A DNA stretch of 63,403 nt from a virus. Its lineage: Duplodnaviria > Caudoviricetes. The position numbers and the translations under genes were made by a program. Where the stretch lies: positions 1-63,403 of the IMG/VR virus record IMGVR_UViG_3300037882_001548, one strand, 5' to 3'. How positions within the stretch are numbered: the first letter of the stretch is position 1; every line of letters starts with the position of its first letter. Shown here one piece after another: positions 33,454-60,337 of the stretch. The notes beneath the pieces were generated by a model that saw only the letters and a list, made by a program, of their open reading frames with translations, did no database searches and was not told the origin of the DNA.

Positions 33454-36400
33454 ATGGAACCAAAGCTCGAATATACACCTATCAATGGTTTTGCTACACC
33501 ACCTACGGGGGGAGATAAACTAAGGTATACACCAATCACTCAACCATTGAGTGACTCTTATGATTCTCGATTAATAAAAGTTAAACACGATTCTAAATAT
33601 GACGCTGGCTATAACCCACTCACTATGGGTAGTCAGGAAGACTATCGGTCATATAAGCAAGGTAGTATGAATAAATGATTGGCTGCTGTACCTCGTACAT
33701 TAAGCTCTATCGCACTTAAAACAATGGGGGGTATTCATGACTTTGGTGCTGCCGCAGCAACGCTCGCATCTAATGTAGGTTCTGTATTCACAGGTGGAGA
33801 TGGATTAGAATTAGCCAACTTATTGGATAACCCTTTCCGCAATGGTTTAGACCAAATGGAAGAAAGCATGAAAGAAGCTATTCCCATTTATAAATCAGAT
33901 GCTTATACCAATGGTAATTTCTGAGGTCGTATGAAAACAGCTGATTTTTGAGCCAGTGATGCGATGGATGGTTTAGCTTTTATGGCTTCGTCTATTGTAG
34001 GTAGTAGAGGTGTGGGTAATTTAGTGCAAGCAAGTGGTCTTAGCTCTAAATTAGCTGCAAAGAGTGCTGCAAAAATAGCCGCAGGTGAAAGTGTGGGTAT
34101 GTACAATCAATTGAATTTATTGGCAGCTAATTCTGGATTAGAGCGTGGTTTAATGACAACATATTCTACACTATCAGAATCAGCAACAGAAGCTTACGGT
34201 GTACAAAAAGAGATTAAGGAAGAGCTTAATCAAAAGAGGGAGTTGGGTAGACAAGGTATAGCTGAATATAAAGCATTTGCTGATATGACAGACGAACAAA
34301 TTAAAAGTAAAGCAGCTAATGCAGCCGCTAATACTTTTGGTGCTAACATGATGATTTTACCTTTTTCTGGATGAATGGAATCAGGATGGGCGCTGCGCAA
34401 AACGGCTGATAAAGCAAACGACTTTAGACGAGGTATTCATGCCGCAGAGCGTGGTGTAGAAGGAGCTGCTGTAGACCAATTGGGTAAAAAAAGTATGCGT
34501 AATACAGCCAAAGCATTTTTAGAAGGTTTTGCTAAAGAAGGTGCTTGGGAAGAAAATATACAAGAATCAGTATCTAAATACTATAAGCAGTATGCAGAAG
34601 CAGAACTTGGTAAGGATGATAATATAGATAGCATAGGAGAAAACTACGCACGCGGATTAAAAGGTTTTGCACAAAATATGTTCGCTATGACAGGCTTAGT
34701 GGAAGGTACTAAAAAAGGTACAACAGAAGATGACGCATCAGCTGCTATTATGCTTGGTGGTGTTATCGGAGGACCAGCTAATATGATTTCATCTATAACT
34801 GAACGTGCACGTAAAGACACTGCTTACAACGCACAAAAACAAGGTTGGTGAAAGAATTTTGATCAAGCATCTAAATATGCTAACGCACGACTTATTGCTA
34901 ATCACACTAATCCTTTGATTAAACAGCAATATGAAGTAGACGAAGAATATCAAGATGGTGAAGAAACTAAGACACGTAAGGTAACAAAAGAAGCGTGGGT
35001 ACCAAGTCCCGATAGTGAAGCTAAGATGGATCCTCGTAAAGCTGACGTTATGCGTACTCGCTCTATGGGTTTAATGCTTGATGAATCACATGACCAAGTA
35101 GCATCACTTGAAAACAATCGCTATTTGAGTACACTCAATGATGACCACGCACTCTATCAATTTGCATATGATTTAGAAAATAGTAGTATGATGGCTCAGA
35201 TGGATGAGACAGACAGAGAACTCATCATAGAAGATATGATGAACAATCACAATGATAAGAATACGGATACAACATCACTTAATCAACTCAAAGGAGATGC
35301 TAAGCAGCGTATCGCTAAGTTCAGAGAAATGGTTAAACAAGCCAATATGGAAGTTAAGAATACAGAGACTGAAACTGACATGATGGATGCTGATGAGAAA
35401 AATCTATTTAATACTTATGCAGATACGTTAAAGAAAGTATTAGGTTTAGAAAAACTTAAACGTCATTCATTTAATCGGATGCGTCAGCGTACAGATATAT
35501 CAGATAAAGCACGTGAGCAGTTAGATAAAGCCATCGAAGACTCTCAATTGTTTGAAGACAGTTTTAAGATGATTAACAATCCGACTGATTCAGGCATGAC
35601 ACGATTTGAAGAGTGGAAAAACTTAACAGCCATTGCTGAACCAGGAGGTAATGCTTTTGAGACTCAAATGAATGATGAAGTGTTAAAGCAGTCTGATAAA
35701 TACCGATTAGTCAATGGTAGTCAACCAAGTATGCGTGAATCTATATTCTATGACTTAGTTGCAGCTAAGGATTTAGCCAATGAATTAGAAGATAAATTGG
35801 CGGATATAGATAAGGTTGACCCTGCGGATGTAACTGAATTAAGCAATCAATTAACGATGGTTAAAAATATGCTTAATGACAATACTGGTATTAAAATGCA
35901 CGCTTTGAATAAAGATGTATTAGATAAAGTCAATCGCTTACAAGATGTTGTCAATAAATCAAAAGCGACAGTACAAAAACAAATTAATGACAACAATGAA
36001 ACATTGGCTTTAATTGATGATTATGATGGATTAGTACAAAGTGATAATCCTGCAAGATTTGATATAACAGATGATTTTTTAGCGCAGTTAGAATCTATGG
36101 GTGTTGATACATCTACAGCTGTTGATGACAATTACGCTTTATCAGAAGAAGCGCTAAATACATTAAGAGAAGAATTACAACGTCAAAATGAATGATACCA
36201 GTCACAATATATTAATGAATTAGAAAGTTTTGACTTTGCAAATATAAGTGATTATGCTAAGCAGTCAGTTGCTTACAATGAGGCTATTCGTGAAGCTGCT
36301 AAAAAAGGCATCAAGGGATTAAATAACTTTGCATTTTTAGAATTTTTTAAGAATAGTACAAAAGATGTCCAAGATTTATTGCGTAAGTTTCTAAGCGAAG

Positions 36401-39400
36401 CCTATGATAACATAGGTGAATTAAAAGAGGATTATGAAGTTGATATTGACATTGAAGTATTAAAAAATTTAAAAGAACAAATTGAAATAATTCAAGCTTT
36501 TGTCGATAAAGAAAAAGCGACACCCAATGATAATCATTATAGTAAAGATACAATAGACGGTATTGAAAATGGTTTCAGAACATATGACGGTAAAACCAAC
36601 TATCGTAATTACGATGGTCGTCAAATGGGTACTGCTGAAATGTTACTACATATAAATCAATTAATTACACTATACAATGCGCAGTCAGAAAAAAGACTTA
36701 AAGATATTCGCGATTATCAATTAGCTCAGGAAAATAGTAGTGCTGACAGCATTATGGAATCTGATAAAATAGATAAAACTATTCGAGATATAGCTGTAGA
36801 TGGTTTAAATGATGATGTTGTAAATGCCTATGAAGAGCATATAATAATTAATACTGTTGATCCTGACTTATCTGAAACAACAATAGAATCTAAAAAGAAT
36901 ACATTTCCTTCGTTTATGGCGCTACTTAATAGATTAGGTGTACTGAAACCTAAGAATATATCAAGTGTGCTTAAAGAGAAGAAAAAGAATATCATTGGTA
37001 CACTATTAAGTAATGCTGATAAAAAGATAAAAGGTTATCTTAAAATATCTACGGACAAAAAAACAGCTGTAGATATGGTGTTGTCATATTTCACGCAGTC
37101 ATCTAATTATGGGCTTGTTGATTTTGGTGGTGACTTGTCTAATAAATTAGTGAATGGTACATTACAAAATGAATTTGAAAGACATAAGGATATTACAACA
37201 TTACTTAAAACAGCTAAGTCAAGTAAATCAGACAAAGACTTTATAAATAAAGAATCTAAACAAGAGTTCATTAAGTTCTTGACAGCTATGTTACAACTTG
37301 AAAACTTAGAGATGTTAGAACGTATTGCGACTAATCCACTTGTTATAAATAAAGTCATAGAACAGTTTCAGAAACAAGAACCAGGTAAGTATCCAACATA
37401 CCAACAAATGTTGGCTATATTAGATATGATATTGACGGTTAAAGAGATTAAAACTAAATCTTTGTATACACCCTTCATAAATATCGCAGGCGTAGCTGGA
37501 GCTGGAAAAACATCAATAGTTGTAAGAACTGTTATAAACTATTTAGAAGCGGAAGGTACGGTAGATAAGAAGACATTGTTTGTAACAGGTCATACAGTAA
37601 CATCAACCAAGAATGTTCAAAAAGTATTAACAGATACTGAAACAGTTACGCAGAATTTGAACGCTTTATTAGAAATGTCCGATGAAGAATTTGGTAAATT
37701 GTCAGCTGTTGTCATAGATGAATCATTTGCTATTCCCATTGAATATTTCAATGCGCTGGAAACAAAGATGAAAAAAGCGAAGATAGATAAACTACCTGTT
37801 TTACTATTAGGTGACCCCTCGCAAACAACAAATAATCCAGGTACAGCTTTTCAAAATAACATTGACCGCACTAAAAGCATTAAGGCACTCACACTTAATT
37901 ACAGAGCTATTATTCCAAGTATCCGAAGCTTTGCTAAGTTATTTGATAATTCTAACTCACAGGTCAAAGAAACGATGACTGTTGCTAATGTAGAAGAATC
38001 TGACTTGATATCAGATACATCTATTATACCTAAGGGTAGTATGGTCGGTAAAGATAGTATAGTGGCGATTGTAGCTGCACAAAAAGCAATTAGACCTGAT
38101 ACAACCAGAGCTATTATTGTAGCCTCAGAAGCAGCTAAATCACCTTATTTAGCATTAGCAGATAAGCATACATTAATTTTAACACATGTAGAAGCACAGG
38201 GTGAATCTTATGATGAGGTGTATTTTGACTTTAATGAGAAACAACGTACATCCGCATTGATGTTTGAAGGTGGTAAAATTGTTATTCGTGATGTTGCCAT
38301 CAGTGAATTGGCTTTTACGGTGCAAGGTAAAGCAAATCGCTATTATAATTCGATTGCCTATACAGCACTCACACGTGCACGTAAATTTTCGTATATGCAA
38401 GACAATACGTTGACGAATAATCATATGAAAGATGATAATGTGAATAGTTCTGTCAATAATTTAACGGATGAAATAGCGCACAATACAACAGTATTTAAAG
38501 AGTTTATGACAGACTTAAATACATCAGCTGAAATGTTAGATGTAAATTATAAGAAGTCATCTGTAAAGGTCAGTAATCAATCTACACAGGCAGCAGCTAC
38601 CGAAAAAGATGATGCTAAAACACCTACTAATCATGCGCCTGATATACCTATAACAGATGATGAAAATGTATCGGAAGATGAGTCACTTGAAAAAGATAAT
38701 GAAGATGCTGTAACTGAATCAGAAGCACCAACACTTGAATTAGCAGAAGACATAGCTAAGGAAGATGATGAAGAAAATATAACCAATAAAAAATCAGAAG
38801 CTAAAACAATAGATAAAAAAAAGAAAGCTAATAAAAAAGGAAAGACTCCGTTATTATCACAGCTTAAAGATAAAATAATAGAATTGTTTTATCCAGCAGA
38901 TATTCATTTTACAGGTGATTTAACAGCACAGGAAATACAGAACTTACTGGATAAAAATCCTAATTATATACCGACAACTGTTCAAGACGATGAAGGTAAT
39001 AATTACATGCCTGTAGGTCAAGGTATTCGTGCTATTTATGTCACAGGTGGTTCAAGCTTTATGATTAGACTTATGGCACCTGTTAAAGATATGTCAGGTC
39101 AATTAGTAACCAATAAATATATTGAAGTAGGTGTATTATCAGAAAAAGATATCTTTATGGAAGACGGTGTAACGCCTCGTCATAAAGATTTATTTGAAAT
39201 TTATATACAAGCTGATACTGAATTTAAAGGAAAGAAAACAGCTATATTCCCAGGTGGTTACGATAAGACAAAAGTACAGACCATTCAACCTAAGCATTTA
39301 ATTGGTCCTGCGTTTAATGTAAAAGAGAAGTCTTCTATGAAGTTTACTTATCTGAATCAAGATGGTAGAACCAAAGAAGAAGAAGCTATTAGCAATCCTA

Positions 39401-42400
39401 ATAATTATACGTTTGACAATGAGATGACAAGGTCTATTCATGCGTACGAACAAGGTATGATGAAGTTGCCTTATAATCAAAAACATAGTATTGAAGTACC
39501 TTTAACGCTTGTAGATGATAAAGGTAATGTATCCATTAATCCGAAAGCACTCAAAGAAGGGTTAATTACCATTTGGGTAGGTACGCAGCAATTAGCTGAC
39601 TACGGGGATATTCGTGCGGAGAAAGGTAAATATAACTTTTCTGCTCGTACAGCCAAAGTTATTCGTAAATGAAAAGGATTACCTTTACTTATCATAAAGT
39701 CTCCTAAAATTAAAAGAAAAGACGGTACAGTGTCATCTCACAATCAAGCACATGTCATACCACTTATTCCACCTAAGATGACAAATAAGTCCATTGAACA
39801 TCAGACGATCAGTGAACTTGTTGATTTATTAAAAGAAGCAGTTACAATGTCAAGTAATAATGGAGCACCTATATTATTTGATGCGAACGCTAATAATCCG
39901 CTGGGTATAGATTTCTCTAATCCTGTATTTGTACAAACACTTGAAACAATTGCCAGCTTATATACAATTAATAGCGAAGGCAATAAAGAATTTAATGCGT
40001 CTAATCAAGAAATACAGGCGTTACTTATTGCAGAACTCATGCAAAAGTTTGTTGCTGTGCGTCAAAATAAATTACAAGAATGGGCTACCAATCCGTGGTT
40101 GCAAGGTTTGTTATATGGTAAAAATGACAAAGGTGAAGAAAACAGTTCAAGTAACTGAGTACGCAAACAATATGTACCTGAAATAATTAAAGATGATAAT
40201 ATTGAAATATTTAAGAAATTAATTGACGTATTATATCATCCAGAAAATACAGATTATAAATTAGCATTAACATCATTTATATCAGAATTAAATAAAGATG
40301 ATAGTAAACGCAATCCCATATTTAATCCGATAGCAGATGGGGAAAAAACACATAATATATCTATTCGCAATACCAATCAACTGGTTATTCAAGTTAAGCG
40401 TGATGAGGTAGGTGGTTATGAGTGGCACTCTTATAAACTGACAGATAAGCAAATAGGTAAAGTAAGTAGTTTCTTAAAAGCTCAGAATGCAGGTAAAGAG
40501 AATTTAGACGTTACCTTAGAAGAATTAAATGCAATTATGGCTGATGAAAAACTCATGGGTGATTTATTAGGTAAAGGTGGTCAAATAATTAACAGTACCA
40601 GTAAAGGTAATGAAAAAGTTAAAACAAAGAAACTTTCGCACAGGTCTAATAAATATCAAACAGCGCTTAATTCAGTAGCACGTCAGAATAGACTGATTGC
40701 CAACAAACCATCTCGTATAAAAATTAGTTTATTTTCATCTAAAAAAGATGAGAAAGTCAAGAAGAAAAACAGAGCACGCTCATTATTTTCTTTTGATGCA
40801 CAGCGCAGTCAATTATGGGGCACACTTAAAAAAGAAGTTAAAGCATATAAAAACTGAGAACTCGATGATAAAAAATCATTGGATGGTTTCATGTACCAAC
40901 ACGGATACGATGACCAAGCACTTGACATGCTTATTGATACCATGATTAGTGAAGGTATTATCACACAAGATGAAGCAAATAAATTCTTAGCGCAGTATGC
41001 TGACCAAGCTACGTCACCGTGAAGTAATGAAAGATTAGAAGATGTATTAAATGACCCGACATTAAATGAACCTATATCACTGTCACCAACAAAAGATATG
41101 AGTGGTGATACGAAGATTAACAATGCGACTAAATTAGATAGAATTGCTAAGGGTGAAAAGATGTCTATGGCGGATATTGCCGATGCTATGCAAAACGCAG
41201 AAGGTAATGATATAAAGATGATTTTTGACGCTTTAAGCGATAAAGCACCAGCATTAGTAGAAAATGTCGAACCAACTAAGATGTCTATTTACAGAGCTGA
41301 TTTAGTGAATAAAGAAGAAGCTATTACAACCATTGAAGATGTATCTGCTGAAATACAAAATCTTACACCACAAACAGAAGCACCAAAAGAACGTAAGGCA
41401 AAACCTCGAATAAATGACATTGATTTATCTGTTACTAAAGATGATGTTGAATTTAGTAAAGATATTAATAATAAATCTATTATTTTAGGTAGAGAAATGA
41501 CAGAATCAGAAGCTGTATTATATCTTAAAAGATTAACACCGCAATTACCGTTTAAGAATAGATTAAATATATTTTTAAAACAATTAATTGGTAAATCTTT
41601 AACAGCTAATGATTTAAACAACGTTCAGTTTCTATCTCGTGCACAAGTAGTGCATAGAGACAATGGAACAAAGCAAGTATGGGGTTTTGTCAGTCAAGGT
41701 GCAAGAACTATTGTATATGACATAGATGCAAATGGTAATAAAGTATTTTATGCGAATACAATATCACATGAATCTTTTCACAACGTATACCGTCATTATT
41801 TGACAGCTAAGGAGAGATTACATGTAGAGTCACTTATTAAGTCACGTGCTATAAAAGACGGGGTAGAAGTAATATCACCTATTGAAATAGAAGAATATGG
41901 TGCTGATTTGTTTGAAAAATATGCGAAAGATAAATTCAGAACTAAAATAAGTTTATTCGATAAAATATTAAGTTTCTTAGGTTTTACAAAAGAATACAAT
42001 AAAGATTTAGACAGTGTATTTGAAGCTATTGATAAAGGTACTATAAAGAATAATTATTTTTATGACGCTACTGAATCAAATAGTTCTGCTATCGCTTTTA
42101 TGGAAAAAGATTTATCTGATTTCACAGATTTAGATAAAGTAATTAAATCAAAAGATATTGTATCGCAATATTTAACGCAGCTATTATATCAAGGTATACA
42201 AGAAGGTAATAATAGATTTTTAGTCACGAGTGCTGAAATATTACCGATGTTACAACAAAAAGCTATTTCTGAATACGGTGTTTTAAATGATTGACTTATA
42301 TGGGCCAATGAAGAAGGTGAATATCTAAACAATAAAATAGCAAACAACGAAGCGTTATCAAAAGAAGAAGCTGCTGATTTAAAAGAAATCACCAATGATT

Positions 42401-45400
42401 ATAAAAGTGTAAAAACTAAAAGACAGTTTTTACATAATTTAATTACAACTGTAAAAACCAATTCAAACAATGATATTGTAACAGAATCAAGTTTTAAGAA
42501 CTTAAATATCATAGCTTCATTGATTATAGGTAGTTTAGAAAGAAATGCTGATGATATATTTACTTTTGATAATGAAGAAATTGATTTAGATAAAATTGAT
42601 TTATCTGAATTAGGCGACATTAACTTAAAAAAAGAAATTCAGAGTTCTGAGGATATTTCGCAAGAAGCGACACTTCATGCAAATATGAAATTATTCTTTG
42701 CTACCATTCCTGATAAAGATAGAGCTAAATTACGTGACGAAAAAGACAATACTAAACTATCATCATTTAAGTTTATAGATGCGCGTTTCGCATATGCTAA
42801 ATCACTGGAAATATTTAAGTTGTTTGAGATGAATAATCGTACAAACAATGATTTATTGCAGCAATTGGACAACATTGCTAAAACCATGAAGATGAATTTC
42901 TCTGGTACTTTTCTTATGGCTGCTGTCAAAGATGCTATACGTAGAACAATACCTACTAAGAACAGTTCACCTTATGAAGTATTTGATGTATTTGATAGCA
43001 ATAAAGTAGTTATTATACCACTGGATAAAGTAATACATGAGCGTACAGATCCAAAAAATGATAAAAGTTCATTATTCTATACGTTTAAAATGAATCCTGA
43101 TGTAGACAACAACGCATTACCTAATTCGGGTGATGAAGCCTTAGCAGCATGAAATAAGCAAGATATGTTACTGCGTCAAAATAATATGACATTGTCTACG
43201 TTATTAACTATTTTAAAAACAGAAGGTCGTGATTCAGAAAAACTTAAAAAAGATGGTAAGTTTATATTTGATACATTTACTTTATTACAAGCATTTGATG
43301 AAACAGCAAATGTAGAAATTGAAGAAGCTGTAACAAATGATGATGGTACTATTATACCCGCTAAATATACACTTAAAAAAGAGTATAAAGTAACAGGTTC
43401 TCGTATAGGTACATTCTATAATTTAATCAACCAATTTGATGAGTACAATGAGCAAACAGGTACAGGTTTGTCAGTAGATGAGTTAAACAATATGTACCGT
43501 ATGACTGAGCTATCACAAGTCGTAAAAGGTTTTCAGAATGTTATGGGTTCTATGACACGTTTAAATTTCCAAATTGCGACAACAGAAAAGAAGTTTGGTC
43601 GTCAAATAGAAACACGTCTTATGGCTAATAAAGATGATACAGGCAGGGAGAAAACAGAATCTACATTTGTCAATGTATTAATCAGAAGATTCAGTAATTA
43701 TTCAAGTTGGGCAGATTTAGAAAAAGCAGCCAGTAATGCCAAAGAAGACTCTTTTGCTAAAGGTATGTTACAAATATACAATTATGTAACGCAGCCTGGT
43801 GATAAAACAGTAGTATCAAAAAATACAATTACAATTAAGAATTTCTTAGAATTGGCTGGATTGACTTCGGATGATTATCAAATTGCTGATAATATGACAG
43901 CCATAGGTATATCTGATATTACGTTTATACTTTCTACAATCGCCGAACAGTTGGGTAAAGAAGAAGTTAATATGGCTAATTTTGAAGGTGAAGTAGCAAG
44001 TAATATTATTACAATTCATGAAATACTTCTGAATACACTTAATACTAAAATACCGACATTTATAGACAAAATATTCAGAGAAACGAACTATGCTCGTGAA
44101 AAGATGATGGTTGCCGCAGATGGTAAAAAAGTAGTACGTGATATACTTGCTACGCATTTAGATAAAGTTATGAAACAATTGATGAATTTTCATAAAGAAT
44201 CTTACTATGATGTAGAGTCTTATCTGAAAACACCCATGATGCTTTTAAATGGTTTCGTTAATAAATCAGCTACATACAGTAATACAATTCAACGTATATT
44301 CACATATGATGCACATCGTAATGAAAATACGGGACTTGTAAAAGTACGTAAAAATGAGAATAAAGCAGAGTATTATAGACGTGAATTCATCGGATATTTT
44401 ATAGATGCTATATCCACAGCTGCATCCAGTGCACCTACTTACATGCAGTCTTTTTATGACTTAGAAGAACGTGAGAAAATGAAAGCTGCTCAAGTTAAAG
44501 TCTTATCAAAAGAAGCGACTAAAGACGGATTAAGAGCTATTATCAGACAGTTAAAAGCACACAATAAAGGTTTATCTCAATGAGGTGCTGACCCTAAGCA
44601 GCGTTTTAATAACTTTCAATTTAAAGACAAAGATGGTAATGATATTATGACAAACCAATTTGTCGATTCAGCCAGTGTAGATGAAATACTACGTGTCACT
44701 GAAAATAAGTTAAATGATGAGATAAATCTTTTAATGCGAGAGTTATTAGAAGAACAAACATTATTTGACCATGAATTATTTTCTAAAATAGCATCACTGA
44801 ATTCAACAAATAAATCTTGGAATTTAGGTGAAAAATACTTTGAAGCACTGCGTGAAAAAACAGGTCAAGGTAAAGATAGAAAAGAAGGTTTTATTGTACA
44901 AGATAAAAAGCGTTATGTGTTAACTACAGAAGACGCTAATAAGTTCATTAGACCTATTATAGAAGCGTATGTATATAACAATTATGTCAACGGTTATTTC
45001 TTAAATCAGGTTGTTACTGGACCATTTGCTTTATATAAAAATGGTAAAGTGATTGTTAAACGTTTAGCTGGTGCTACAGGTGCTGGTCATATGCAGTTAA
45101 TCAGTCATTATGATGAGCGTACTAAAAAATTCAGTATTGGATCTAAGGAAAAGTTCAGTGTATTGATTGTCAAAGATGTTGTTGGTGCTAAAAATGAAAA
45201 AGATGATGATGTAGAAGCATATAAGAAAAACAGCAGTATACAAAGATTCTTACGCAATATGTTTATTGGTAACAAACAATTATCTGAATCAGAACTCATA
45301 GACGTAAATAACGAAATTGACGCTATACTTAAATATTATTCTGATAAAGGATATGATATCACGGATGCTCAGGCATTTATGACAGTAGCACGTGAGGCAG

Positions 45401-48400
45401 ACATTAGAGCTGGTTTAAATGATAAGATGAATTTTTCAGGCATCGCTAAAAATATGTATTTTGGTATTGAGACAATTGATGTACAAAGACCAGAAGTATA
45501 TGACACAGAACAAAAAGCAAAAGATGCTTTAAAGAAAATAGTTGATTTAACAAGTGAAAATAATAAAGATGCGCCGCATAGTAAAATAGACACAATAGTA
45601 TCTACTGATGAAAATGGTATTGAAAAGACAACATATCAAATTACAACGGCAGAGCCTATTACATTTTATTTAAAGAACTCTCACATTGTTTTAACAGATG
45701 ATTTGGTTAATAAATTTCCTCGTCTTAAAGCCATTAAAAACTTTCTTGAATATCAAGATGATGTTCATCAACCTATTGGTGAGTTGGTATTTGAAACGGG
45801 TATTAAAGTAGGTAAGCCTAAAAATAATCCGACATTTGCTGAATTAACTGAAACAACAGACAACGAATCTATTGGTGCAAAACGTACAGAGTTAATGAAT
45901 AGAGGTACTAAGATATTATCTTTATCTAATGTCAATAACAGAATACAATTTAACCCTCAATCTGATTTAGTTCTGACTAAGAATAAAATAGCATTATTCT
46001 CTCAAATCATGTATTTCATTAATACGGGACAGAACAAGTCATGGAGAGCTGATGAAGCGTATCAAGCACAAGGTTATTTGTTAGAAAAAGGTTTACTTGA
46101 ATTTGAGAAAAATGTAGGTTCATCACCTGTCGAATTTGATTCATTTATTAAGAAAGAATTAGCTAAATCACCAGAAGCTGCTCATTTATATGAATTGATG
46201 GTTAACGGTTTATCGGCTAATTCATTATTGATGGATAAGAAAATTATAACACTTTTAACATCTAATTTATCTAAAACACAGTTCGGTAAATTACTAAAAT
46301 TTAAAGGTGGTAAATTTACATTGATGACGGCAGAAGGCAGTGATGTAACAGAATCAAGTATACGCTTTGATGGTAGAACAACTGAATTAGAATATCGTAT
46401 TCAAAAAACATTTACGTATGCGCGTGATGCAGATGGTAAAATCATATTTAATGACGAAGGTGAAGCAACGTTAAAAGAAACGCAAGGTATGGTTTCTGAT
46501 GCGTATTTACCTAAAGCGTTCTTTTATAACTTTAATAAAAAACACAACAAATGAGAAGTTAAATTAGAGTACGCTCATATTATTGAAGCCATTGAATCAG
46601 GTAAATCACTTGTAGACAGTTCTTTATTTTTAGGATTCCGTCTACCAAGTACAGAAATTAACTCAGGTATATTAATTAATGTTGCGGGATATCACACAGA
46701 AAACGATTCATCTATTATTGTACCTAAAGAAGTAGTACCTTTACATGGTTCTGACTTTGACGTAGACTCACTGTTTGTTATAACAAGAGAATCTATCGGT
46801 AAAGATGAAGCCAATGCTAACTGAGGTGAGATAAAAGCTGTACCTGATGTACCTGTTATAAATAACAGTGACCCTAATAAAATATCTATCCGATACAATA
46901 TGGTTAAAACAGATGAACTAAACTTCTCAGCAGGTTCTATTGTAGGTATGTATAAAACACCGACACCTGACGGTAAATCAGTTGAATTATTTGATAAAGA
47001 TAGATATTTGAAAGCGTTATATGCAAATAAAGAAGCAGCGCAGCAAATATTAAACGACATTCAAGTATTTATAAACGATAAGGATTTATATGTTACCAAT
47101 GCTGACAATAAAAAAGTTACGGATAAAGCAATTGGTGAACTTAAATCTTACATTGGTGTACTATCTAAATTAGAGAATAAAGTATTGCGTAATGTTATGG
47201 TAGAAAATACCATACAAGTATTATTTGATTCTAATAATTTAGTACGTATGACAACACCTATTTCTACGGAGTTTATAGATGGTAGCCCTGAATCAAATCC
47301 TAATTCTATAAAAGGTATATTTAGTGCTTTGGGTATTGCAGATGCTCGATTTGACTTTGAACCTAATTTATCACTCCGTTCAGATTCACAAAAGATGTTT
47401 AAAAATATATTTGATGGTGCAAGTCTTACGGGTATATTTGCCAACAGTGTAAAAGTATTATCTTATATCACACGTTCTGGATGAAGAAACGAAGAACCGA
47501 TGCTGAAAAATAAGTTTCATGTACGCATTGATGGTATATCACATGACCAAATGTCACAAGTAGAAAGACGTACAAAAGAAGAAATAGCAGCAGGTATTCC
47601 GCCTAAGCCTATTTGGGCTATCATGCAGATACTTGTTAACATTGCCATAGATAATGCTAAAGATATGTTATTGTACGCCATAAACGCAAATTATACGACT
47701 GCAAACGCATTGACTGCTGCTGTGACAATTGGTATTCCTTTTGAAAAAGCAGTGTTGTTAATCAATCAACCTGCTGTAAGATTATTTGATTTATTTGAAT
47801 ATCGAGGTAATCTGTCTAAAACAAGTGGTCAAGTAGTAACAGATGTTAAAAATATACTACGTTTACTTAAAACAGATTTAGATGTCAAGGGTGATGAACT
47901 ATTAACAAAATTAAACAATCAGAGTATTGAGGAATTAGATGATACAAATGATAATGAGAATGATGAAGAAAATACATCAATGTCTTTTGATACACTAAAT
48001 GAAATAGGAGATGAAACAGATGAATCTTACATAGATAAATCTAAATTAACAATAGGTACTTCAAGTAGTTTTGAATTGACAACAAAGCAAATGAAAGATT
48101 CTTTGGACAGTAAGACAAATAATAATAAAAGTGCTGTCATTATGAATTTAATTAAGATGCAAAATCAAGCGAAACAAGGTAAGATATCAAAAGAATTATT
48201 TTTAAATGAATTAAAAAAAGTTCAAAGTGATCCCAATATATTAACTATCTTATATCAAACAAAAGTACAATTAGAAGTAGCACGCACATTTAGAAAATTA
48301 GCAGCCATTGGTGAAGGATTAAAACAAACATCTACTATATTGACACCACTACGAGATTATACGACTCGATTAGATGAGCAATTGGATTTGAGAGAAACAG

Positions 48401-50214
48401 TTACTAAAATATTTCCTAAGTATAGAGCATCCAGTTACGATGGTAAAAACTTCTTTACATTCAGGGATAAAATGATGACTAAACGAGAAAGTACAAATTC
48501 AAATGACCAAGACCAAACAGCCGATGATTATCCTTTTGACATACCTAACTTTTTCAGTATTAATCCACACGTTAAATCATCGCTATTATCACTGTTTAAA
48601 GTCAATGATATTATCGAAGATAAATTAACACTACATAGTCCCGCACTGGATTATAATCTTAAAAAAATATTCAAGATGTATTTAGATGGTGTTAAATTTC
48701 AATCACTTGGATTCAGTGGACCTAATACAACGTATATTGAATTTAAAAGACGTTTAGCGGCAAGTTTATATACTAAAGTATTATATACATCATTATTGGC
48801 AAAAGGTATTATAAAAGAAGCTAAGGATTTTAAAACAATAGATGAAAATTACAATGTTAAGTTTCTTTCTGGTCACGAAGCATTTAGGCAATCGCTGGTT
48901 CTTAAATTAGAAGCGGTGATATTGGCTGAAAAAGAAAGAGTTGGTGCAGCCATAGATAAACAGTACAGCGATAAAATTGATGAACAGCAACGCGCTGCAT
49001 ACATCAAAGAATCCATGAATCCTTTTATTCGTAAATTATACATTAAAACCAATGGTGATATAACAATCAGCAATGCAGCTAATTTAGATACCTACGAATT
49101 AATACAGATGCGCAAATCATTCTTATCATTGAATGATTTTATGATAAGTGAGATAAAAGACAGTGAGGGTTTTATATCTTATAAAGCAGATTATATGCCA
49201 GGTATAACAAATTCACTTAAATCAGAAATGTATTTGTATGAAGCTATGTTTAATGGTTTAAATTATAGTAAATCTAATAGTTTAATGTTTATAGATTTAG
49301 ATACGATTAAAGAAGCAGACGATGCGTATGCGCAAGAACTTAAAAGATTTGAGATACCGTTTATGTTATCCGAAGGACCTATTCAAGATAAAGAAGTAGA
49401 TGAGATTATGAATCATGTGGATAATATCATGCGTAAAAATGCGTATAATTTAAGAGAGTTATATGCACAAAAGAAAGATTCGCCTGGTACAAAAGGTTAT
49501 TTAAAAGAAAACGTACGTAAAATTAAGTTACGTGTATCTAATAATGTATATACCATTAGAACAGGACTACGTCAATTAAAACTTCCTTTTGCTCATAAAA
49601 TAAATGATACAACGACATTAGTATATCATCCAGATATGATTTATATACCTGATATAAATACAATAACTAAAGAACTTTATGTGCCAGCACATTATGTCAG
49701 AGATTCACAAGGCAATGCTTACGTTAAAGTAAAATATATACAAGATAGAGGCGTGTACTTATATAAAAGTTTAGGTAAATCATCAGCTTATGTTCCTGTG
49801 AGTAGGAAGTATAATCGTAGTGAAACCATATTAGATATAGCCAAAGCAAGTATTCAGTATGAGCGTATAGTAGATGTTAAATATATGCCAGGAACAGATA
49901 ATATAGTCAGTGGTGCAATAGTAACACAATTAAAAGTGTCTGAAACTATAAAATCAGGTGAATACGTTAAATTATATAATAATTCTGATTTGGCAATGCA
50001 AGGTAGTGATTTTAAATGAGTTGTTATAACATGAACTGATTTGAATAAAAATTATGAAAATCCTGATGCTCAAAATGATGCGGGTAAGGGACTTTATAAA
50101 TATAATTTTACAGTTGTACCGAAAGACCAAGCAAAAATGTTGGACGTTATGTCTACAAATCACATTATTGATGAAACCAATATAGAAATATTTGAATCTA
50201 AATGTAAGTCATAA
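33454..50214 (+). CDS. giant virion polyprotein containing the crAss-type virion RNA polymerase, an SF1 helicase domain and a zincin domain (5586 aa, code 4)
   Basis: Fourteen ORF-track fragments are all in one frame, separated only by TGA (~18). RNAP motifs TDAQ (~45361), GFRLPS and GSDFDVD (DFDVD at 46753-46767, in a gap of the ORF track). Helicase motifs GVAGAGKT (37489), VIDES, GDPSQ, AQGESYD and YTALTRAR. HESFH at 41767. TAA at 50212-50214. Confidence 0.88.
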
Positions 50215-50234: not shown

Positions 50235-53200
50235 ATGTTTTGTAATATAAATAATAACAAACAAGGGGAGATTGAATCAGTCAATCTCCCCAATAATGAA
50301 CTATCCAAAGTATACCCTATTATGGCTAAGTTAAGTGGTCGTGTAAAAGGATACATGAATTATCAAAAAGTTCATAAACCACTGGCTGATAAAAATGACA
50401 GCACTGAAAAGACTGTCACAATGACTACACCATATCAATATGCGGTAGATGGTATAACTTTTCAAGTAGAGAATTCTGAATTAATTAATTTCGCAGAAGA
50501 CACTACATTAAATTCAGACAATCTGATAATTAGTACAAAAGAAGCTATTGATAGCGTTAATAATTTAGATATTTCTGATGAAACCAAACGAGTAAATCAA
50601 TTGCGTTTACTGCGTGATAATTTACCTATGAGTCAATTATTAAAAACATTAAGTAGTTTTTTCGATGATAAAAAAATAGACAACGAAACCAAAGATTTGT
50701 TGTCTATTTTGAGTCAATTAAAAACAGCTTTTGATAGAATAGGTCAAGATATGCCCGTTAACTTATATCAGTCTGTACAGGGAAGATTAATAAAAGACAA
50801 TCAAAGTAATTTATTAACTATAAAAGGACGTGTATTAAGTAGACCTCAACGCATTGTTAATGGTAAAAAAGAAATAGTCTATAATAGTTTAGAAGTAGCT
50901 GGTATGGAATTATATATGAATCCTTTTTCATCTGATGCAGCTATATCTAAGGAAGCACTTAAAACATTAGTTCATGAATTAACACACGTTCTAACACTAC
51001 AAGCATTAGAATCTGATAATGTATTCAAGCAAGATATTGAAAAATTATATGTGCAAGCGTTATCTAAATATAATAGATTAAAAGAATCTAATTCTATTCC
51101 TTATATGTATGGTATGACTAATATAAAAGAATTCATATCCGAATCTTTAAGCAATGCCCAATTTCAAAAGTTTTTAAATAATATCACAGATATTAATGCA
51201 AACGATAAAAATAATACTTCATTATTAAATCGTTTGAGTGAAGCTATTTTAAACGCCATAGACAGATTTTTATTAAAACTTAATATAAGTATCAACAAAG
51301 ATAGTGTTCTTGATTCAGTGTTTAAAAAAACGTTACTTAAAGTACATTCTCAAAATAAAATCAGTGAATCAAATGAAGCTATGACTAAACGTATGAAACA
51401 AATGGTTGAGTCAGGTGAATTCAGTGAAACAGATTTAGCATTGCAATCTGGTAAAAATAAGACAGATAATTTACAAAGTAATTCAGTTGTAGAAGATGAA
51501 TTAAATCAGATTAGAGAGAACGAAAAGAAAAAAGCAGATAAACGTAAAGATAGTTTTTCATCGTGAGAAAAGATTAAAGTTAAATTATCTAAAAACGCAG
51601 AAGATTTAACTGTTGATGACGCAGGTAGTATTTATCAATCTATCGAATCAGCCATTAAAGGCTTTGTATCTAATTTTGATCCTGATATAGAATCTATAAG
51701 AAGTCGATTTAAAAAGAGTGGTTTTACATCAGAATACGAATCCATCAATCATGATTGGGGAGAGCGTATATGGAAAGACACAGATCCTCTGATTAAAAAA
51801 GATATACGTGGTTTTGGTAAAGTCAATAAAGAAGAAGCTGTAGCCGCTAAGAATGCAGCCAACGCATCAGGTAAAGAAAAAGGTACAATTATAGGTAATA
51901 TGATTCAATTGGCTTTTACAACTGACCCTATTACTAAATCTACATTACAAGCCGCTATATTAGCTATTTACAGCGATAAAACATCTAAATGGTACGGTAA
52001 GTCTAATAATTTTCAATGGGTCACAGAATTAACCGCTACATTAGCTGATAGATGAAATTTAGGTAAAGATGATAAAGTAATGTTTGAAAAAGAATGAGCG
52101 TCACCCATTCTTAAACTCAATGGTCGCATAGATGGTCTGATACAAAGAGCTAATGGTATGCTTAGACTATTAGAATTTAAAACATCCAATGGTTCTTTTT
52201 TACATGATGGTTTTACTATGTTTAAATACGGTACAGTAGGTGCTAAGCAAATAAGTATGGATTCTCTAAATAGAGCTAAATTACAAGCTATAGCACCAGC
52301 ATTTGCGCTGATGGTTGAAAATCATGATTTTAGATTTGAGGGTATTGAAGTCAATTGATTTCCTAACGAGTCTATTGCATTTGATGTTAATACATCTAAA
52401 ATTGAAATGAGTCGTGAAGAAATTCAATCATACTTAGACATGATGCGCGCTTATTATAAAGCAGAGCAACCTGATGTATACGCTAAAATTAAAGATGTTA
52501 TCCCCATATGAAATGCTTCTAACTATACAAATGCTGTCGATAGCATAGACATTCAAGACAAATCAGGTAATCAAAAATTCAGTTCATCCGAAGAAGAATT
52601 TAAAAAGACTCTGGCTAATTTAAAAAAGAATGTGTTATTTGAATCTAATTTGACAAAGTATAAAAGTACGGCGGCAAGGCTTAATAGTCCTGATGTAGTC
52701 AAACGCAATTATGATATGTTAGAAAAAGATGTATCTCGTTTAATTCAAATTATGTCTGATGGCGGTGTCAATTTAGCTGACCAAGATTATGTTAAAGATT
52801 TCTCAGATATTCGTTTTTATACGTCCACTATGGCTAATACAGGTAACGCTGTGGTCGATTTATTTCATCAACTGTTTGAACAGCGCAGCTTGCTTGTTAA
52901 AGACGCTGTAATGAAAGATAAAGTAGCTTTTAACAAAGTATTCATGCCATATATAAACCAACAACGCGCTTTAAAAGGATTAGGTCCATTGAAACATGAA
53001 AATGATTTAAAAAAGTATTTATCTAAAACAAATACAGCTGAAATATATGGTAAACTGTATAAAGAATATGAAGATGATGAAGGCAATAAACGTAAAGGAT
53101 TATTTCGCAGTGACGAAGACTTAAATGACCCAATAAATGATTTAACAGATATAGATAAATCACTACTTAATTTTTTAAATAATCATTATGATACTTTCTT

Positions 53201-55466
53201 TGTAGGCGATAACGCACTACTAAATAAACCGTATACATATAAATTAGACTTCTTGAAACAAGAACAGACATTATCCGCTATTGATGTATACAACGGCAAT
53301 ACATATAATAGTTCTATGAATGAACGTGGTAGTTGGAATTATACACAACAAACACAAACCAATAAATCTAATGGTAAGCGTGATGTAGGATGGTTTCCTA
53401 AGTTTGCGCCGACAATGGATGAAATGTTAATGATGAATAGTTTGATTACTTATAAAACAGATGCTAATGGCAATCAAGTCATAGATAAATCATTCGCAGA
53501 TTATAAATTAGCAGAGCTGCGTCAAGTTAAAGGTATGGATAGATATTTATCTAAAGAATATTGAAAATTATGAGCTTTGTCTAATTTCACAACATTCTGA
53601 GAAAATGAATACAATGAAACAGGTAGAGATGACCAACATGCCGTTCCTGTAGTAGGTCTGGGTGGTAAAATCATCAATAACAATATGAATTATACGCTGG
53701 ATATAGAAATGCAGTTTAATAACTTTACGACACAAATGCGGCGTAAAGAACATATGGATGATGTATTTGTATTGGGTAAAGGTATGGTTCATTATCTGAA
53801 TGAGTTTAACAGTGGTGATTTAAAGTCTGGTCAAACAGGTAGTTTATTATCACGTTTTATTGATGCGCACGTAAAAGATAAAGTACAAGGACTGAGTGAT
53901 GAAGATAAAGACTTTTCATTCCTTTCACGACCTATTCAAATCAGAGCTTTTAAAAAAGACCCCAGTAGAATAGATGGACGTTACAGTCGTTATAATTTCT
54001 CTACACGTAAGTTTATTCAGTATATTAAACGGAGTGCTTCATCAGCCATTATGTTTGTATCTCCTATAAGTGGATTTGTCAATGCGATGCAGGCATATAC
54101 GGCATCTGTTAGAATGGGTGCCGCATACAGTGTCGCTAAGAATTTAGATGATAAATTTAGTTTATTTGGTACGGATGGTATAAAAGACATTCATGATTTT
54201 GGTGCTGGTGATTATCATAAAGGTTTAAAATTTGGTATGGATATACTGACTAAACCTTTACGGGGAGAAAATTTGAATGAAGATAAGTTATGATTAATCA
54301 GTGAAGCATTGAATTTTTTACCTGATAGCGCAGATTACAAGTTATCGTCATCTAATTTAATGGTTGGTTCATATCAGTGAAAAAAAGCATCTCACATGTA
54401 TTTATTCCATAGTGCTTTTGAAGAAGTGAATACACTTGCTGTACTGTATGCGCAGTTACAATCTCAAAAAGTAGTCAGTACAAATCCTAAGTGAAATGGT
54501 AAGTCTATGTTGGATATGTATACAGTTGTCGAGGGACAACTTAAATTTGCTTATGACGAGACAACAGGTGAAGAAGATTTATCTTTCAATAGAGGTTACG
54601 AACGTAGCTTAAATGGGGAGAATGTGGCCATTAGAGGCGTTACATCCAAAGAAGCGACTAAATTAAAACGGGTGTATGAAAGACTACAAGGTGGTTATAG
54701 GACGGAAGAAAAAACTATTATGGAAATGACGCTACTCGGTGAATTATTTTTACAGTTCAGAAAGTATTTACCGTCACTGCTTAAAAATATGTTTGGTTCT
54801 AAAAAAGATGATTATTCACTGGGTCGATATGTCACCAAAGAAGTGATAGATGGTAACATGAATCCCATAGAATTAAAAGAATGAAAAAGTAGACGCATAG
54901 AAGGTCGTTTTAATGTATTAGCGCATGGTTTAACACAAGTTATTAGAACACATCCTGTTGTACCTAAATCAGTACAGTCTTTTATGAATGGTAGTGCCAG
55001 TATGCAAAATTCTTATAAATGAGAAGATTTATCACCAGAACAGCGACTGGTATTCATAGATTTAGGTGTAACAATGGCTATGGTATTAGCACCTGCTGCA
55101 ATATTATTTACACGTTCTGGTGTAGATGACGATGATTCGTATTTAAAGATGTTACAACGTATTGCTGGTAATATATGGCAGCCATACAATCCATTTGAAG
55201 CATTGAGTTTCTTGACAAGCGTACCCGTACCAATGAAAGTATTTGCTAAGAAGCTGGGTGCTTATTCAGAACTCAGTAAATCACTACTACTTTATGCGAT
55301 AGGTAATGAGCAAGATGCGATGACACAAAAAGGTTATTTGAAAGGATTTAAAGAATCAGCACGTTATGCGGGTGGTGTTGTATCAGCAGGTTATAAACTG
55401 TGAGACTTCCAGATGCATCAGAAAAATGATTTGAATGATTTTATATTTGGTACTAAATTAAGATAG
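50235..55466 (+). CDS. large virion/ejection protein with zincin and PD-(D/E)xK nuclease-like domains (1743 aa, code 4)
   Basis: Six fragments in one frame joined by TGA. HELTH (50973) with downstream EFISE; FE...GRIDGL...LLEFKT (52122-52184); hydrophobic segments near the C-terminus. Ends TAG-TAA. Confidence 0.8.
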
Positions 55467-55557: not shown

Positions 55558-56205
55558 TTATTTATTCAATGTATCAGCGACAGATTGTCTTAATTTAATA
55601 CCAATGTGTACATAAGGAGTTTCTTTAATAAATTGATTAAAGAAGAATTTACTATTACCGTCAATTACGTCAACATGAGTAGAAGTAACAATTAACCATA
55701 ATGTATCTTCCGTACTATAATGATTTCCTTTAGCCTCAGATACATTAATATCAAACACATCACCAAATTCCTTTTGCAATGTAAGACCTATTTCAAGGTC
55801 AGTAACGCCTTCAAATTTATTTATCGGTGTATCACCTACAATTTGGTGATAGTACGCTTCAAAGATACGAAGATAGCTTCGCATAATGTCATTACCTCTA
55901 TTAGCGTCATCACTGAAACCAAAGCATTGATGATATGTATTGTCTGTCTTAGAAAACAGACAATACATACGATACATCTTAACAATGGCTAAGACATGAA
56001 TAAAGCAACAATTAGGTAGCATGAAAGTATTTAATGCAGAACCAGCACTTGTTTTAGCTTTGCTAATAATTTCAAAAAATTCAGCCAATGATTTGGATGT
56101 TAATAGATTATCAGTAACAAATCCATTTTGTTTTAGATTTGCTTGATTTTCATTTTGTGAAACACTATTAGTTTGCATTGATGTCCATTGCATAAACTTA
56201 GCCAT
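55558..56205 (-). CDS. hypothetical protein (215 aa)
   Basis: Clean ORF with ATG, A-rich leader and TAA; no recognisable motif. Confidence 0.7.
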   Translation of the reverse strand: MAKFMQWTSMQTNSVSQNENQANLKQNGFVTDNLLTSKSLAEFFEIISKAKTSAGSALNTFMLPNCCFIHVLAIVKMYRMYCLFSKTDNTYHQCFGFSDDANRGNDIMRSYLRIFEAYYHQIVGDTPINKFEGVTDLEIGLTLQKEFGDVFDINVSEAKGNHYSTEDTLWLIVTSTHVDVIDGNSKFFFNQFIKETPYVHIGIKLRQSVADTLNK

Positions 56206-56237
56206 ATTTTTGATTTATTTTAAATTGTTAAATAATA

Positions 56238-56906
56238 TTATTTTTGTTTATTAATTATATATTCAGTTAACCACTGATTCATTTCTTTCAGTTTATCACT
56301 TACTCGAACATCATCAGGTGTTGGGATGTACATGTAATCATATGTATAAGCATCTTTAGGATACTTACTCATTAATTCATTGTCATCCAGCGATGTATTA
56401 AGTGACGCTTCTAATGTTTTACGAAGCTCTTCGCCTTTAATCAATATCTGATGCTTCTTATTGATTATCTTTTCTCCATTGGATAGTAATAGTCAGTAAG
56501 CTTGTGAAGCATAGTCCAATAAATCAATATTTATTTCTGAATATCGACCATCATACATAGGCTCAACAACATCCTTTTTGATTTTTTCAGGAATATCTAA
56601 TTTAATCAATGTCAAATGTTCTTTACTATCTACATCAAAACTTTCATAAAAATTATGATTGCTTATAATATCGAATAAGAATTCATCAGACAATTGTTTA
56701 GAATTAAATGCTATAATAAATGTATTGTCTTTAATGAAGGTATTAACAAAACCATTCTTTGTGAATTGCTCAAAAGGAATAGTTTTTGTTATTCACGGTA
56801 ATACAAAGTGTGCACTGGGGTTAAGTGTACGCTTGTAATCTTTCTTTAAGTTCTTGTCTAAAAAAGTTTCGTAAGGTGTGTTCAGTAAATTTAGTTCTTG
56901 GTTCAT
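56238..56906 (-). CDS. hypothetical protein (222 aa, code 4)
   Basis: ATG at 56906 (MNQELNL...). Two in-frame TGA join ORFs 56493-56693 and 56238-56444. Confidence 0.7.
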
Positions 56907-56963
56907 TATTTTATTAATTTTTTAATTGTTAAAAATATTTTAAAATTAGTGTTTTGAAAATAA

Positions 56964-57179
56964 TTATTGTGCTCGTAGTATTTCTCTATTGAGCTTTGCC
57001 GTAGCTACTTTATTAGCGTGGCGTACTTTGTTTCGAGCATCTTTGATTTTCTTTTGCTCGGCATACGCTGCTTTATATGCTTTCTTGTGCTCATTAACAG
57101 GTGGAATAACATCCAACTTGAACATACCTGGTGCGGTATCGGGGTAATTACTTTTTTCTAACGACATAAAACCTTTCAT
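56964..57179 (-). CDS. small basic hypothetical protein (71 aa)
   Basis: ATG at 57179, two nt after the exonuclease TAA; K/A-rich helical C-terminus. Confidence 0.6.
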   Translation of the reverse strand: MKGFMSLEKSNYPDTAPGMFKLDVIPPVNEHKKAYKAAYAEQKKIKDARNKVRHANKVATAKLNREILRAQ

Positions 57180-57181
57180 AA

Positions 57182-60115: not shown

Positions 60116-60118
60116 TAT

Positions 60119-60337
60119 TTATACAGTAATTTGTAAACCGAATCTTGAATCTAAAGTATCATCAAAACCCTCAATAAAGTCACCAATATCTGTATAAATA
60201 ATTGAAGAATCATCTGATATACTTTTACTTATAACCGAACCAATATTATACATAAATGAAGATTCATCTAAGTCGTTTTCTATTGCTTTCTGCAAATCTA
60301 TAATAATTTTTTTTACCAATTCTTTTTTATTCGCCAT
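60119..60337 (-). CDS. small acidic hypothetical protein (72 aa)
   Basis: TAATG-coupled start; ORF runs to TAA. Confidence 0.6.
   Translation of the reverse strand: MANKKELVKKIIIDLQKAIENDLDESSFMYNIGSVISKSISDDSSIIYTDIGDFIEGFDDTLDSRFGLQITV

Follow-up and report, generated by a model that had tools for sequence, protein, structure and literature searches.

The locus described here raises the question of what a helicase and a protease would be doing in the same chain as a phage virion RNA polymerase, and whether such a chain is encoded by one gene at all. It lies in the virus record IMGVR_UViG_3300037882_001548 of IMG/VR (Duplodnaviria; Caudoviricetes), of which the whole stretch from position 1 to 63,403 was analyzed and is called the window below. 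An earlier note, made from the sequence alone, had described a giant open reading frame (ORF) on the + strand of the window as a virion polyprotein of 5586 amino acids (aa), composed of a membrane segment, a superfamily 1 (SF1) helicase, an acidic linker, a zincin and an RNA polymerase, and related to virion proteins of crAss-like phages of the phi14:2 type. Apart from the membrane segment, this description held, and the helicase motifs, the HESFH motif and the DFDVD active site were all found at the places first given for them. In the reading that we prefer (probability of about 0.6), the ORF is a genuine gene of a crAss-like phage that uses TGA as a Trp codon, and its product would be a two-module chain of ~631 kDa, probably packaged in the virion and ejected, in which the helicase feeds template to the polymerase. 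The observations that carry this reading are the frame and its code, four homologies, the fold of the helicase model, the conservation of the catalytic motifs and an architecture that extends through a whole clade.

The frame (33454-50214, + strand) spans 16,761 nucleotides (nt), or 5587 codons, of which 18 are TGA and none TAG; the only TAA ends the frame. Under translation table 4 it is a single ORF with an ATG start, 5586 aa and a calculated mass of 631 kDa, and no true stop splits it; under table 11 the same stretch is broken into 10 ORFs of at least 150 aa. TAA and TAG made up 7.9% of the codons in the two off-frames of this stretch, and a frame open by chance was rejected, with a probability of ~1e-200 from this off-frame stop frequency. 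The DFDVD motif at nt 46753 is flanked by TGA codons at nt 46552 and 46822. Since no code-11 ORF of at least 100 aa covers it, the active site of the polymerase is hidden in a standard-code gene call, as had been noticed before.

The residues found opposite the TGA sites in relatives were analyzed in BLASTP alignments. Trp accounted for 7 of the 37 non-gap residues, the rest being mostly L, F, Y, V and I, and opposite the 16 TGG codons of the giant ORF the same alignments had Trp at 10 of the 38 relative residues. W157 and W166 aligned with Trp of the phi14:2 protein gp67, and opposite W166 there was Trp in 4/4 relatives. These Trp, aromatic and hydrophobic residues indicated that TGA is read as Trp. 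Furthermore, TGA interrupts most of the long + strand genes of the contig, among them those for the portal, the large terminase (TerL), a 1505-aa virion protein and the homologue of gp65, and TAA was the terminator of every ORF examined on the contig.

The minus-strand replication genes of the window (55558-63401) are interrupted by TGA as well: the primase gene (61703-62647) contains 4 in-frame TGA codons, an exonuclease-like gene (57182-58309, - strand) 5 and an endonuclease-like gene (60337-60846, - strand) 6. Hence, the recoding reaches beyond the late structural genes.

The polymerase part of the chain could be recognized by means of a profile. Pairwise BLASTP against phi14:2 gp66 gave an E value of 0.002 only, single-sequence phmmer against PDB sequences gave nothing significant, and tblastn of the polymerase half against 50,697 GenBank phage records gave no match. 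A profile made from the polymerase part of the window and of five relatives (A2) matched 6vr4_A, the DNA-dependent RNA polymerase of phi14:2, with an E value of 6.4e-50 over gp66 residues 843-1795, and this identified the module as an RNA polymerase of the gp66 type, as proposed. DFDVD (aa 4434) was invariant in the A2 alignment, and GSDFDVD (aa 4432-4438) aligned with GSDFDID of gp66. Two double-psi beta-barrel domains are implied for the polymerase of the window by the 6vr4 alignment.

The helicase motifs followed one another in the expected manner. Motifs Q and I were PTYQQ and the Walker A sequence GAGKT (aa 1349, nt 37498), motif II was DESF (aa 1422, DE at nt 37717), motif III GDPSQ (aa 1453, nt 37810), motif IV NYR, motif V QGESYDE (aa 1582, nt 38197) and motif VI TRAR (TRARK; aa 1640, nt 38371). 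Motif Ia reads GHT, which we take to differ from the usual form of this motif in SF1 helicases. In Pfam, the region matched AAA_30 with 32.2 bits (cut-off 27) and AAA_19 with 28.4 (cut-off 25.1); Viral_helicase1, with 18.2, stayed below its cut-off of 21.

No significant match among PDB sequences was obtained with the helicase part as a single sequence, and a profile was needed. A HMMER scan with aa 977-2072 as the query, run against 1.84 billion cluster representatives at E <= 1e-3, returned 15 proteins, of which 13 are mutually related and have the helicase domain, one is related to the region that follows the helicase, and one is the fragment of the window itself. The alignment of these proteins (A1) was used for a profile and for an AlphaFold (AF2) model. 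The best match of the A1 profile among PDB sequences was a Dda-type helicase, 9kwf (E 2.2e-6). The model reached a predicted local distance difference test score (pLDDT) of 82.3 and a predicted template modelling score of 0.79; from the single sequence, by comparison, the region gave a useless model (pLDDT 41.6). Foldseek returned SF1 and SF2 helicases for the A1-based model. In VIA-align, the model scored Z 23.2 with UvrD (292 residues, 3.1 Å), 22.4 with T4 Dda, 22.0 with RecD2, 21.8 with DSH9 and 20.9 with Pif1, with 258-292 residues aligned across UvrD, Dda, RecD2 and Pif1. Pfam, profile and predicted fold therefore all agreed on an SF1 helicase with the full set of motifs. From its best sequence matches, the segment at aa ~1290-1670 is predicted to be an SF1 helicase or translocase of the RecD/Dda/Pif1-like kind; since SF1A and SF1B structures tie within 1 Z unit, either polarity is possible.

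Relatives with the same arrangement were found among long proteins. P0019, a protein of 4111 aa encoded on a 105.6-kb contig and having Viral_helicase1 and AAA_30 as its precomputed Pfam matches, was colinear with the giant ORF in BLASTP over the N-terminal domain (E 2e-38), the helicase (1.7e-19) and the polymerase (1.8e-63); a motif search placed its DFDVD at aa 4024 and its HExxH at aa 2340, the latter being recognized as a motif only. An A1-profile search of longer proteins, which covered lengths of 4525-5000 aa and is not a census, yielded five giants of 4807-4924 aa (P0022-P0026; E 2e-62 to 5e-121), and 5/5 had the helicase, the HExxH region and the polymerase in the order of the window (polymerase of P0022, BLASTP E 1.6e-64). 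The shorter P0010 (2585 aa) combined a gp67-like head, matching the N-terminal domain of the window at E 2e-33, with the helicase and HExxH. A homologue search with the helicase region of the giant ORF among proteins of 3072-9776 aa returned none, a limit of its word index, since P0019 and P0022-P0026 exist; single-protein scans of viral contigs found no relatives either.

The spread of the fusion was surveyed in IMG/VR with the pattern GSDFDVD, which gave 585 stretches and 271 confirmed relatives. The best 80 loci, with 10-kb flanks, were analyzed by searching their six-frame translations with the A1 hidden Markov model (HMM). Twelve loci with less than 2900 aa upstream were left out, and the 68 assessable ones include some near-duplicates (L007/L008, L022/L023). 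The helicase was found upstream of the polymerase, on the same strand, in 21 of the 68. In 16 of these 21 the two shared one frame without TAA or TAG between them: 14 had one frame without a stop under the standard code, and in L011 and L026 (2/21) only TGA lay between helicase and polymerase, so that they were recoded like the window. Many of the ORFs were still open where the locus ends on the 5' side, after 4,600 to 6,500 codons. The other five loci (5/21) were split, by a single TAA between genes in the same frame in 2 and by different frames in 3. Since 14 loci have one standard-code open frame, a single chain is the norm in the helicase-bearing clade. No such helicase was detected within the 10-kb flanks, on either strand, in 47 of the 68 loci, among which contigs of typical gut crAss-like phages are presumably to be found.

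A FastTree tree of the polymerase core (81 rows, local support values only) contained one branch, with support 100, that splits 29 rows from 52. The 29-row side comprised 22 helicase-bearing rows (window included), 6 that were not assessable and 1 without the helicase (L029), and the 52-row side 46 without it and 6 not assessable. On this tree, the presence of the helicase can be explained by two changes of state. The branch of the window is long (1.54), which makes its exact position inside the helicase clade unsure. The helicase-zincin-polymerase architecture is thus not a one-off, and recurs in one clade of environmental relatives.

L029 (IMGVR_UViG_3300025030_000064) was the sole assessable locus of the helicase clade without a detectable helicase in the ~3,700 codons searched upstream. 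Its ORF runs off the locus at a length of at least 4,824 codons, and the helicase may have been lost or may lie further upstream. Outside the clade, many loci (L033-L036, L048, L053, L054, L059, L061, L077, L082 and others) had standard-code polymerase ORFs of 4,000-5,000 codons; they represent different fusions, from which this helicase is absent.

The split loci and the many TGA codons could also be taken to mean that no single chain exists, some TGA codons terminating translation or being only partly suppressed, so that shorter products are made and the fusion is an artefact of full read-through. ARAGORN found no tRNA, and hence no UGA suppressor tRNA, in the 63-kb fragment, with 18 TGA codons in frame to be passed; the modules are separate genes in the 5/21 loci, and the text of Yutin et al. 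(2021, PMC7886860) describes polymerase protein boundaries that vary among close relatives. Nevertheless, the record is a linear fragment estimated as 64% complete, so the absence of a tRNA says little, and the TGA sites lie inside conserved domains where they align with Trp, in 4/4 relatives in the case of W166. TGA also occurs in the portal, TerL, primase and other genes of the contig, where TAA ends the ORFs examined, 14 related loci have the one frame without any standard-code stop, and the TGA codons nearest to the inferred junction of the two modules (see below) are at aa 2523 and 2947, with none at the junction itself. This alternative was accordingly considered highly improbable. A model with TGA as an ordinary stop between separate small genes was rejected, again from the TGA sites inside conserved domains and aligned with Trp.

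The chain would thus be single, and the boundaries of the split loci point to its organization. In 5/5 of them the polymerase gene starts 110-151 aa upstream of HExxH and 1524-1677 aa upstream of DFDVD, and the upstream gene has the helicase without HExxH. With the split-gene boundary just upstream of HExxH, the chain consists of two modules, a gp67-like head with the helicase and a zincin with the polymerase. The protease motif would then sit directly after the module junction, as far as the position of the latter can be projected from the split loci, and the gene boundary in these 5/5 relatives lends indirect support to the proposal that the zincin processes the chain itself.

HESFH (aa 2772, nt 41767-41781) is the sole HExxH in the giant chain. 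The motif was present in 21/21 helicase-bearing loci, 1317-1687 aa upstream of DFDVD (1662 aa in the window), and in a multiple alignment HESFH was in line with the HExxH of 17/17 relatives, in the context HExFHxxxxxYLTxxER. A second motif, EE..LA..F, ~45 aa downstream of HESFH, was common to most of the 17. The zincin region was also similar in BLASTP to the giant relatives P0022-P0026 (E 1e-4 to 8e-13). The proposed HESFH...EE signature was therefore borne out as a conserved one; its form is that known from gluzincins, with EE as the putative third metal ligand. In the Atlas, the zincin region gave weak leads to Peptidase_Mx1, MPTase-PolyVal and LPD23, with template modelling (TM) scores of 0.24-0.37, below the bar.

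Between helicase and zincin, the acidic linker was confirmed by a D+E fraction of 0.19 in aa 1601-1800. The conserved region that follows the helicase matched P0003 with 49% identity (E 2.2e-63) in phmmer and 42% identity (E 1e-78) in BLASTP; an Atlas search with this region gave no usable match.

The conservation of the helicase motifs was counted over 22 sequences (the window and the 21 IMG/VR loci), with ~25% overall identity. The GK[TS] of Walker A, the DE of Walker B, the Arg of motif IV and the Arg of motif VI were each present in 22/22, and GDxxQ in 21/22. The Gln of motif V was kept in 16/22 and replaced in 6/22. It was considered whether helicase and zincin could be structural relics, retained as packaging or spacer mass in the capsid without catalysis. 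The replaced Gln and a zincin module without a Pfam match would agree with this, as would the large parts of crAss cargo proteins without known function, ~1,600 gp66 residues without identified homologues among them. However, the invariance of Lys in Walker A, of DE in Walker B and of the two Arg at such low overall identity, together with HExxH in 21/21 loci and a second acidic motif conserved in most aligned relatives, made a loss of catalysis improbable.

The N-terminal part of the chain was the one point on which the earlier note had to be corrected. It had described the first ~450 aa as Gly/Ala-rich and hydrophobic and as a membrane segment. The first 400 aa are indeed rich in Gly/Ala (20-26%, against ~10% elsewhere in the chain), whereas their mean Kyte-Doolittle hydropathy is negative (-0.35 to -0.80) and they are not hydrophobic overall. 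No transmembrane-grade stretch was found in 19-residue windows over aa 1-470, the best value being 1.42 at aa 430-448. Instead, the region (aa ~3-460) is a homologue of the N-terminus of phi14:2 gp67, to which aa 46-460 matched with E values of 1e-11 in tblastn and 3e-25 in BLASTP. In its GenBank record gp67 is a virion structural protein found by tandem mass spectrometry. The N-terminal 2800 aa, searched with tblastn against the 50,697 GenBank phage records, matched phi14:2 g067 alone. No Pfam family matched the N-terminal domain, a profile of the N-terminus and whole chain (A3) had no PDB match at E <= 0.01, and PHROGs gave no real match to any part of the giant ORF.

The kinship to the virion proteins of phi14:2 was thus confirmed by homology and also by gene order. 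The giant ORF is preceded by a virion structural protein (PHROG 15100) and ORFs of 668 and 641 aa, and followed by the gp65 homologue, an order that as a whole mirrors g071 to g065 of Cellulophaga phage phi14:2. Within it, g067 (virion protein), g066 (RNA polymerase) and g065 correspond to the N-terminus of the giant ORF, its C-terminus and the downstream ORF, so that the polymerase sits between gp67-like and gp65-like parts inside the structural block. The identity to the phi14:2 proteins is very low, 25-31% in short stretches.

The function of the fused chain can be considered against what has been reported for phi14:2. In the text of that preprint (bioRxiv 10.1101/2020.03.07.982082), gp66 is packaged in the virion and transcribes the early genes. 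In vitro it transcribed single-stranded M13 and denatured phi14:2 DNA efficiently, native phi14:2 DNA weakly and double-stranded M13 not at all. The crystal form was self-inhibited and may need refolding or cleavage. The same text describes the orthologues of gp65, gp66 and gp67 as virion proteins that in some phages form one polyprotein, 'likely cleaved', places a zincin-like protease domain in the gp65 orthologues, and notes that QDE-1, which is related to gp66, needs RPA and the helicase QDE-3.

As this type of polymerase prefers single-stranded DNA, a role of the helicase in opening DNA for it was proposed. The chain would be packed in the capsid and leave it on ejection together with the leading DNA or before it. 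The zincin would cut it at the module junction, either in the capsid or after entry, and the ATP-driven helicase would open the incoming duplex and hand a single-stranded template to the polymerase, which would then transcribe the early genes. A more far-reaching version, in which the helicase is the missing DNA-opening factor of the crAss virion polymerase and the chain a self-contained, ATP-driven initiation machine released by the junction protease, is possible though doubtful. If true, a helicase that peels the entering genome end would explain how infection is started by a polymerase inactive on duplex DNA in vitro, and it would mirror the QDE-3/QDE-1 pairing of helicase and polymerase in eukaryotic RNA silencing; phi14:2 and the gut crAssphages, which have no such module, would in that case depend on a comparable factor of the host or of the phage.

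Several points weigh against the preferred reading. For this phage and its clade, packaging, enzymatic activities, cleavage and the coupling of helicase and polymerase are predictions from sequence, and the fact that a helicase adjoins a polymerase does not show that they act jointly. Since phi14:2 and 47 of the 68 crAss-like loci have no such helicase, these phages evidently manage without it. At ~631 kDa, the protein could travel through a tail channel only if it were unfolded or cut; for crAss001, cargo proteins as large as 277 kDa are believed to go through partly unfolded, with no helicase mentioned in the portions of that article drawn on here (PMC10172136). With no suppressor tRNA in the fragment, inefficient read-through of 18 TGA codons would leave the full-length product rare. 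The assignment as a zincin-like metallopeptidase is a putative one, made from motifs and not from a predicted fold: the module had no Pfam match at E <= 0.1, its similarity to the gp65-type zincin of P0019, P0018 and P0010 was not significant (best E 0.17), and an HMM of gp65-type zincin segments left the HESFH region of the window undetected. The replacement of the motif V Gln in 6/22 sequences belongs here as well.

The helicase might instead be a motor for DNA import, or act against host defences by stripping proteins or nucleases from the DNA ends, while the polymerase works independently. Its place in the gp67-like ejection module rather than in the polymerase module would suit such a role, and so would the 5/21 helicase-bearing loci in which its gene is separate from that of the polymerase. 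In the text of Iyer et al. (2017, PMC5512222), the helicases of injected polyvalent proteins are proposed to act on incoming DNA against restriction. Set against this, one frame runs from the helicase to the polymerase without TAA or TAG in 16/21 loci, the presence of the helicase tracks one polymerase clade, the single-stranded template preference of gp66 offers an obvious role in transcription, and no specific defence target was indicated by the present analysis. A helicase working for entry or defence only was therefore regarded as rather unlikely, and feeding of the polymerase as the better account of its presence.

Comparison with known systems showed which parts of this arrangement have precedents. 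As in phi14:2 gp67-gp66-gp65, the gene order is the same and the N-terminus, the polymerase and the downstream ORF (including its HExxH) are homologous; and as in the 'huge polyprotein' forms of some crAss-like phages, proteins of the gp65-67 set are fused in one chain with probable cleavage. Unlike in the window, gp67 of phi14:2 has no Walker A, gp66 has no HExxH, and the A1 profile found no helicase match anywhere in the phi14:2 genome (the positive control passed); furthermore, in the window a zincin-like domain heads the polymerase module, besides the one in the gp65 homologue. The helicase resembles SF1B RecD, Dda and Pif1 and SF1A UvrD in all seven motifs and in the two-RecA fold (Z 20.9-23.2), and differs from known SF1 helicases in its place within a 5586-aa virion-type protein and in its core of ~380 aa without large accessory domains.

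Polyvalent proteins, as described in the text of Iyer et al. (2017, PMC5512222), are similar in several respects: they are multidomain chains with genes located among those of the virion, they contain a zincin-like peptidase to which their processing has tentatively been attributed, and they bring enzymes that act on DNA at entry. They include the virion RNA polymerase of the N4 type fused to a zincin-like MPTase, and this polymerase, unlike that of the window, is single-subunit and T7-like, not two-barrel. Their helicase modules also differ, being mostly of the SWI2/SNF2 kind (SF2) and accompanied by methylases; UvrD-like SF1 modules are rare there and occur in a few plasmid giants (PMC5512222). 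None of the Pfam polyvalent-protein families matched the giant ORF. With QDE-1/QDE-3 the window shares a two-barrel polymerase of the kind that prefers single-stranded DNA; according to the preprint on phi14:2, QDE-1 also relies on a helicase and on a factor that binds single strands. Unlike the helicase of the window, QDE-3 is a separate protein, presumably a RecQ-type (SF2) helicase, and the resemblance is one of function, not of homology between the helicases.

Giant fused crAss transcription proteins, the gp65-type zincin domain and the stop-codon recoding that hides them are already in print. Full-text literature searches, with figures and supplements outside their reach and an earlier mention therefore possible, found no description of a helicase domain inside crAss virion RNA polymerase proteins; in the texts searched, the crAss SF1 helicase appeared solely as a stand-alone gene of the replication module. 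What appears to be new here is an SF1 helicase present across a clade, plus a protease at the module junction, added to the known gp67-gp66 fusion. The crAss virion polymerase is the first enzyme to act in infection by one of the most abundant phage groups, and its in vitro restriction to single-stranded or denatured DNA raises the question of how it gains access to a duplex genome in the cell. An SF1 helicase that is catalytically intact by its motifs and joined to the polymerase is a concrete and testable candidate for the missing activity. In TGA-recoded genomes, such genes, among the largest phage genes recorded here, vanish from standard-code annotation.

The coordinates of the features are collected in Table 1.

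Table 1. Features of the giant ORF and of the adjoining gp65 homologue (nt positions in the window).
Feature	Position (nt)	Strand	Basis
Single 5586-aa ORF (~631 kDa)	33454..50214	+	Open only with TGA as an amino acid codon; TAA stop
N-terminal Gly/Ala-rich domain, aa 1-470	33454..34863	+	Homology to the phi14:2 gp67 N-terminus
Acidic spacer of ~820 aa, aa 471-1289	34864..37320	+	No Pfam or PHROG family; composition
SF1 helicase core, two RecA-like domains, aa 1290-1670	37321..38463	+	Pfam, profile, predicted fold, motifs
Conserved post-helicase region, aa 1667-2040	38452..39573	+	Match to P0003
Acidic linker, aa ~1700-1790	38551..38823	+	Sequence, composition
Inferred module junction, aa ~2620-2660	41311..41433	+	Position projected from the boundary in 5/5 split loci
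Zincin-like module, aa ~2679-2950	41488..42303	+	BLASTP, conserved motifs
gp66-type virion RNA polymerase, aa ~3338-5242	43465..49179	+	Profile A2 to 6vr4; DFDVD at nt 46753-46767
gp65 homologue, 1743 aa, 14 in-frame TGA	50235..55466	+	BLASTP E 2e-7 to phi14:2 gp65

The source phage was assigned from its conserved genes. TerL was of the crAss type, as were the portal (PHROG 6547, E 2.6e-109) and the major head protein (PHROG 11589, E 4e-70). With only 27-28% identity between its portal and known Crassvirales portals, the phage is, by these sequence comparisons, a deep-branching crAss-like lineage.

The gp65 homologue has a zincin motif of its own, HELTH, at aa 247 (nt 50973-50987), so that the phage has two zincin-like HExxH modules, the other being that of the giant ORF. 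In the relatives P0019, P0018 and P0010, the internal zincin was significantly similar to the gp65 zincin (P0019 versus gp65, E 5e-8). This similarity points to a duplication or a transfer of the domain long ago.

The first ORF of the window (112-2568, + strand) was composite. Its residues 2-132, which contain GAGKT and DEAH, matched Pfam ResIII (E 3.3e-21) and represent the N-terminal half of an SF2 helicase of the ResIII/DEAD type; aa 166-230 correspond to a homing-endonuclease segment of the LAGLIDADG type (Hom_end). The part that follows matched positions 297-679 of the PHROG 6681 profile (E 8.4e-66) and is the C-terminal portion of a large terminase of the crAss type. No match was obtained in this ORF to the ATPase N-terminus that TerL usually has. 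The arrangement could reflect an insertion of the intein or intron type, a TerL ATPase of an unusual kind or, close to the end of the contig, a join made during assembly.

Additionally, a 336-aa protein encoded in the structural block (20547-21557, + strand) combined a hydrophobic N-terminal stretch with a caspase-like domain (Pfam Peptidase_C14, E 3.2e-15).

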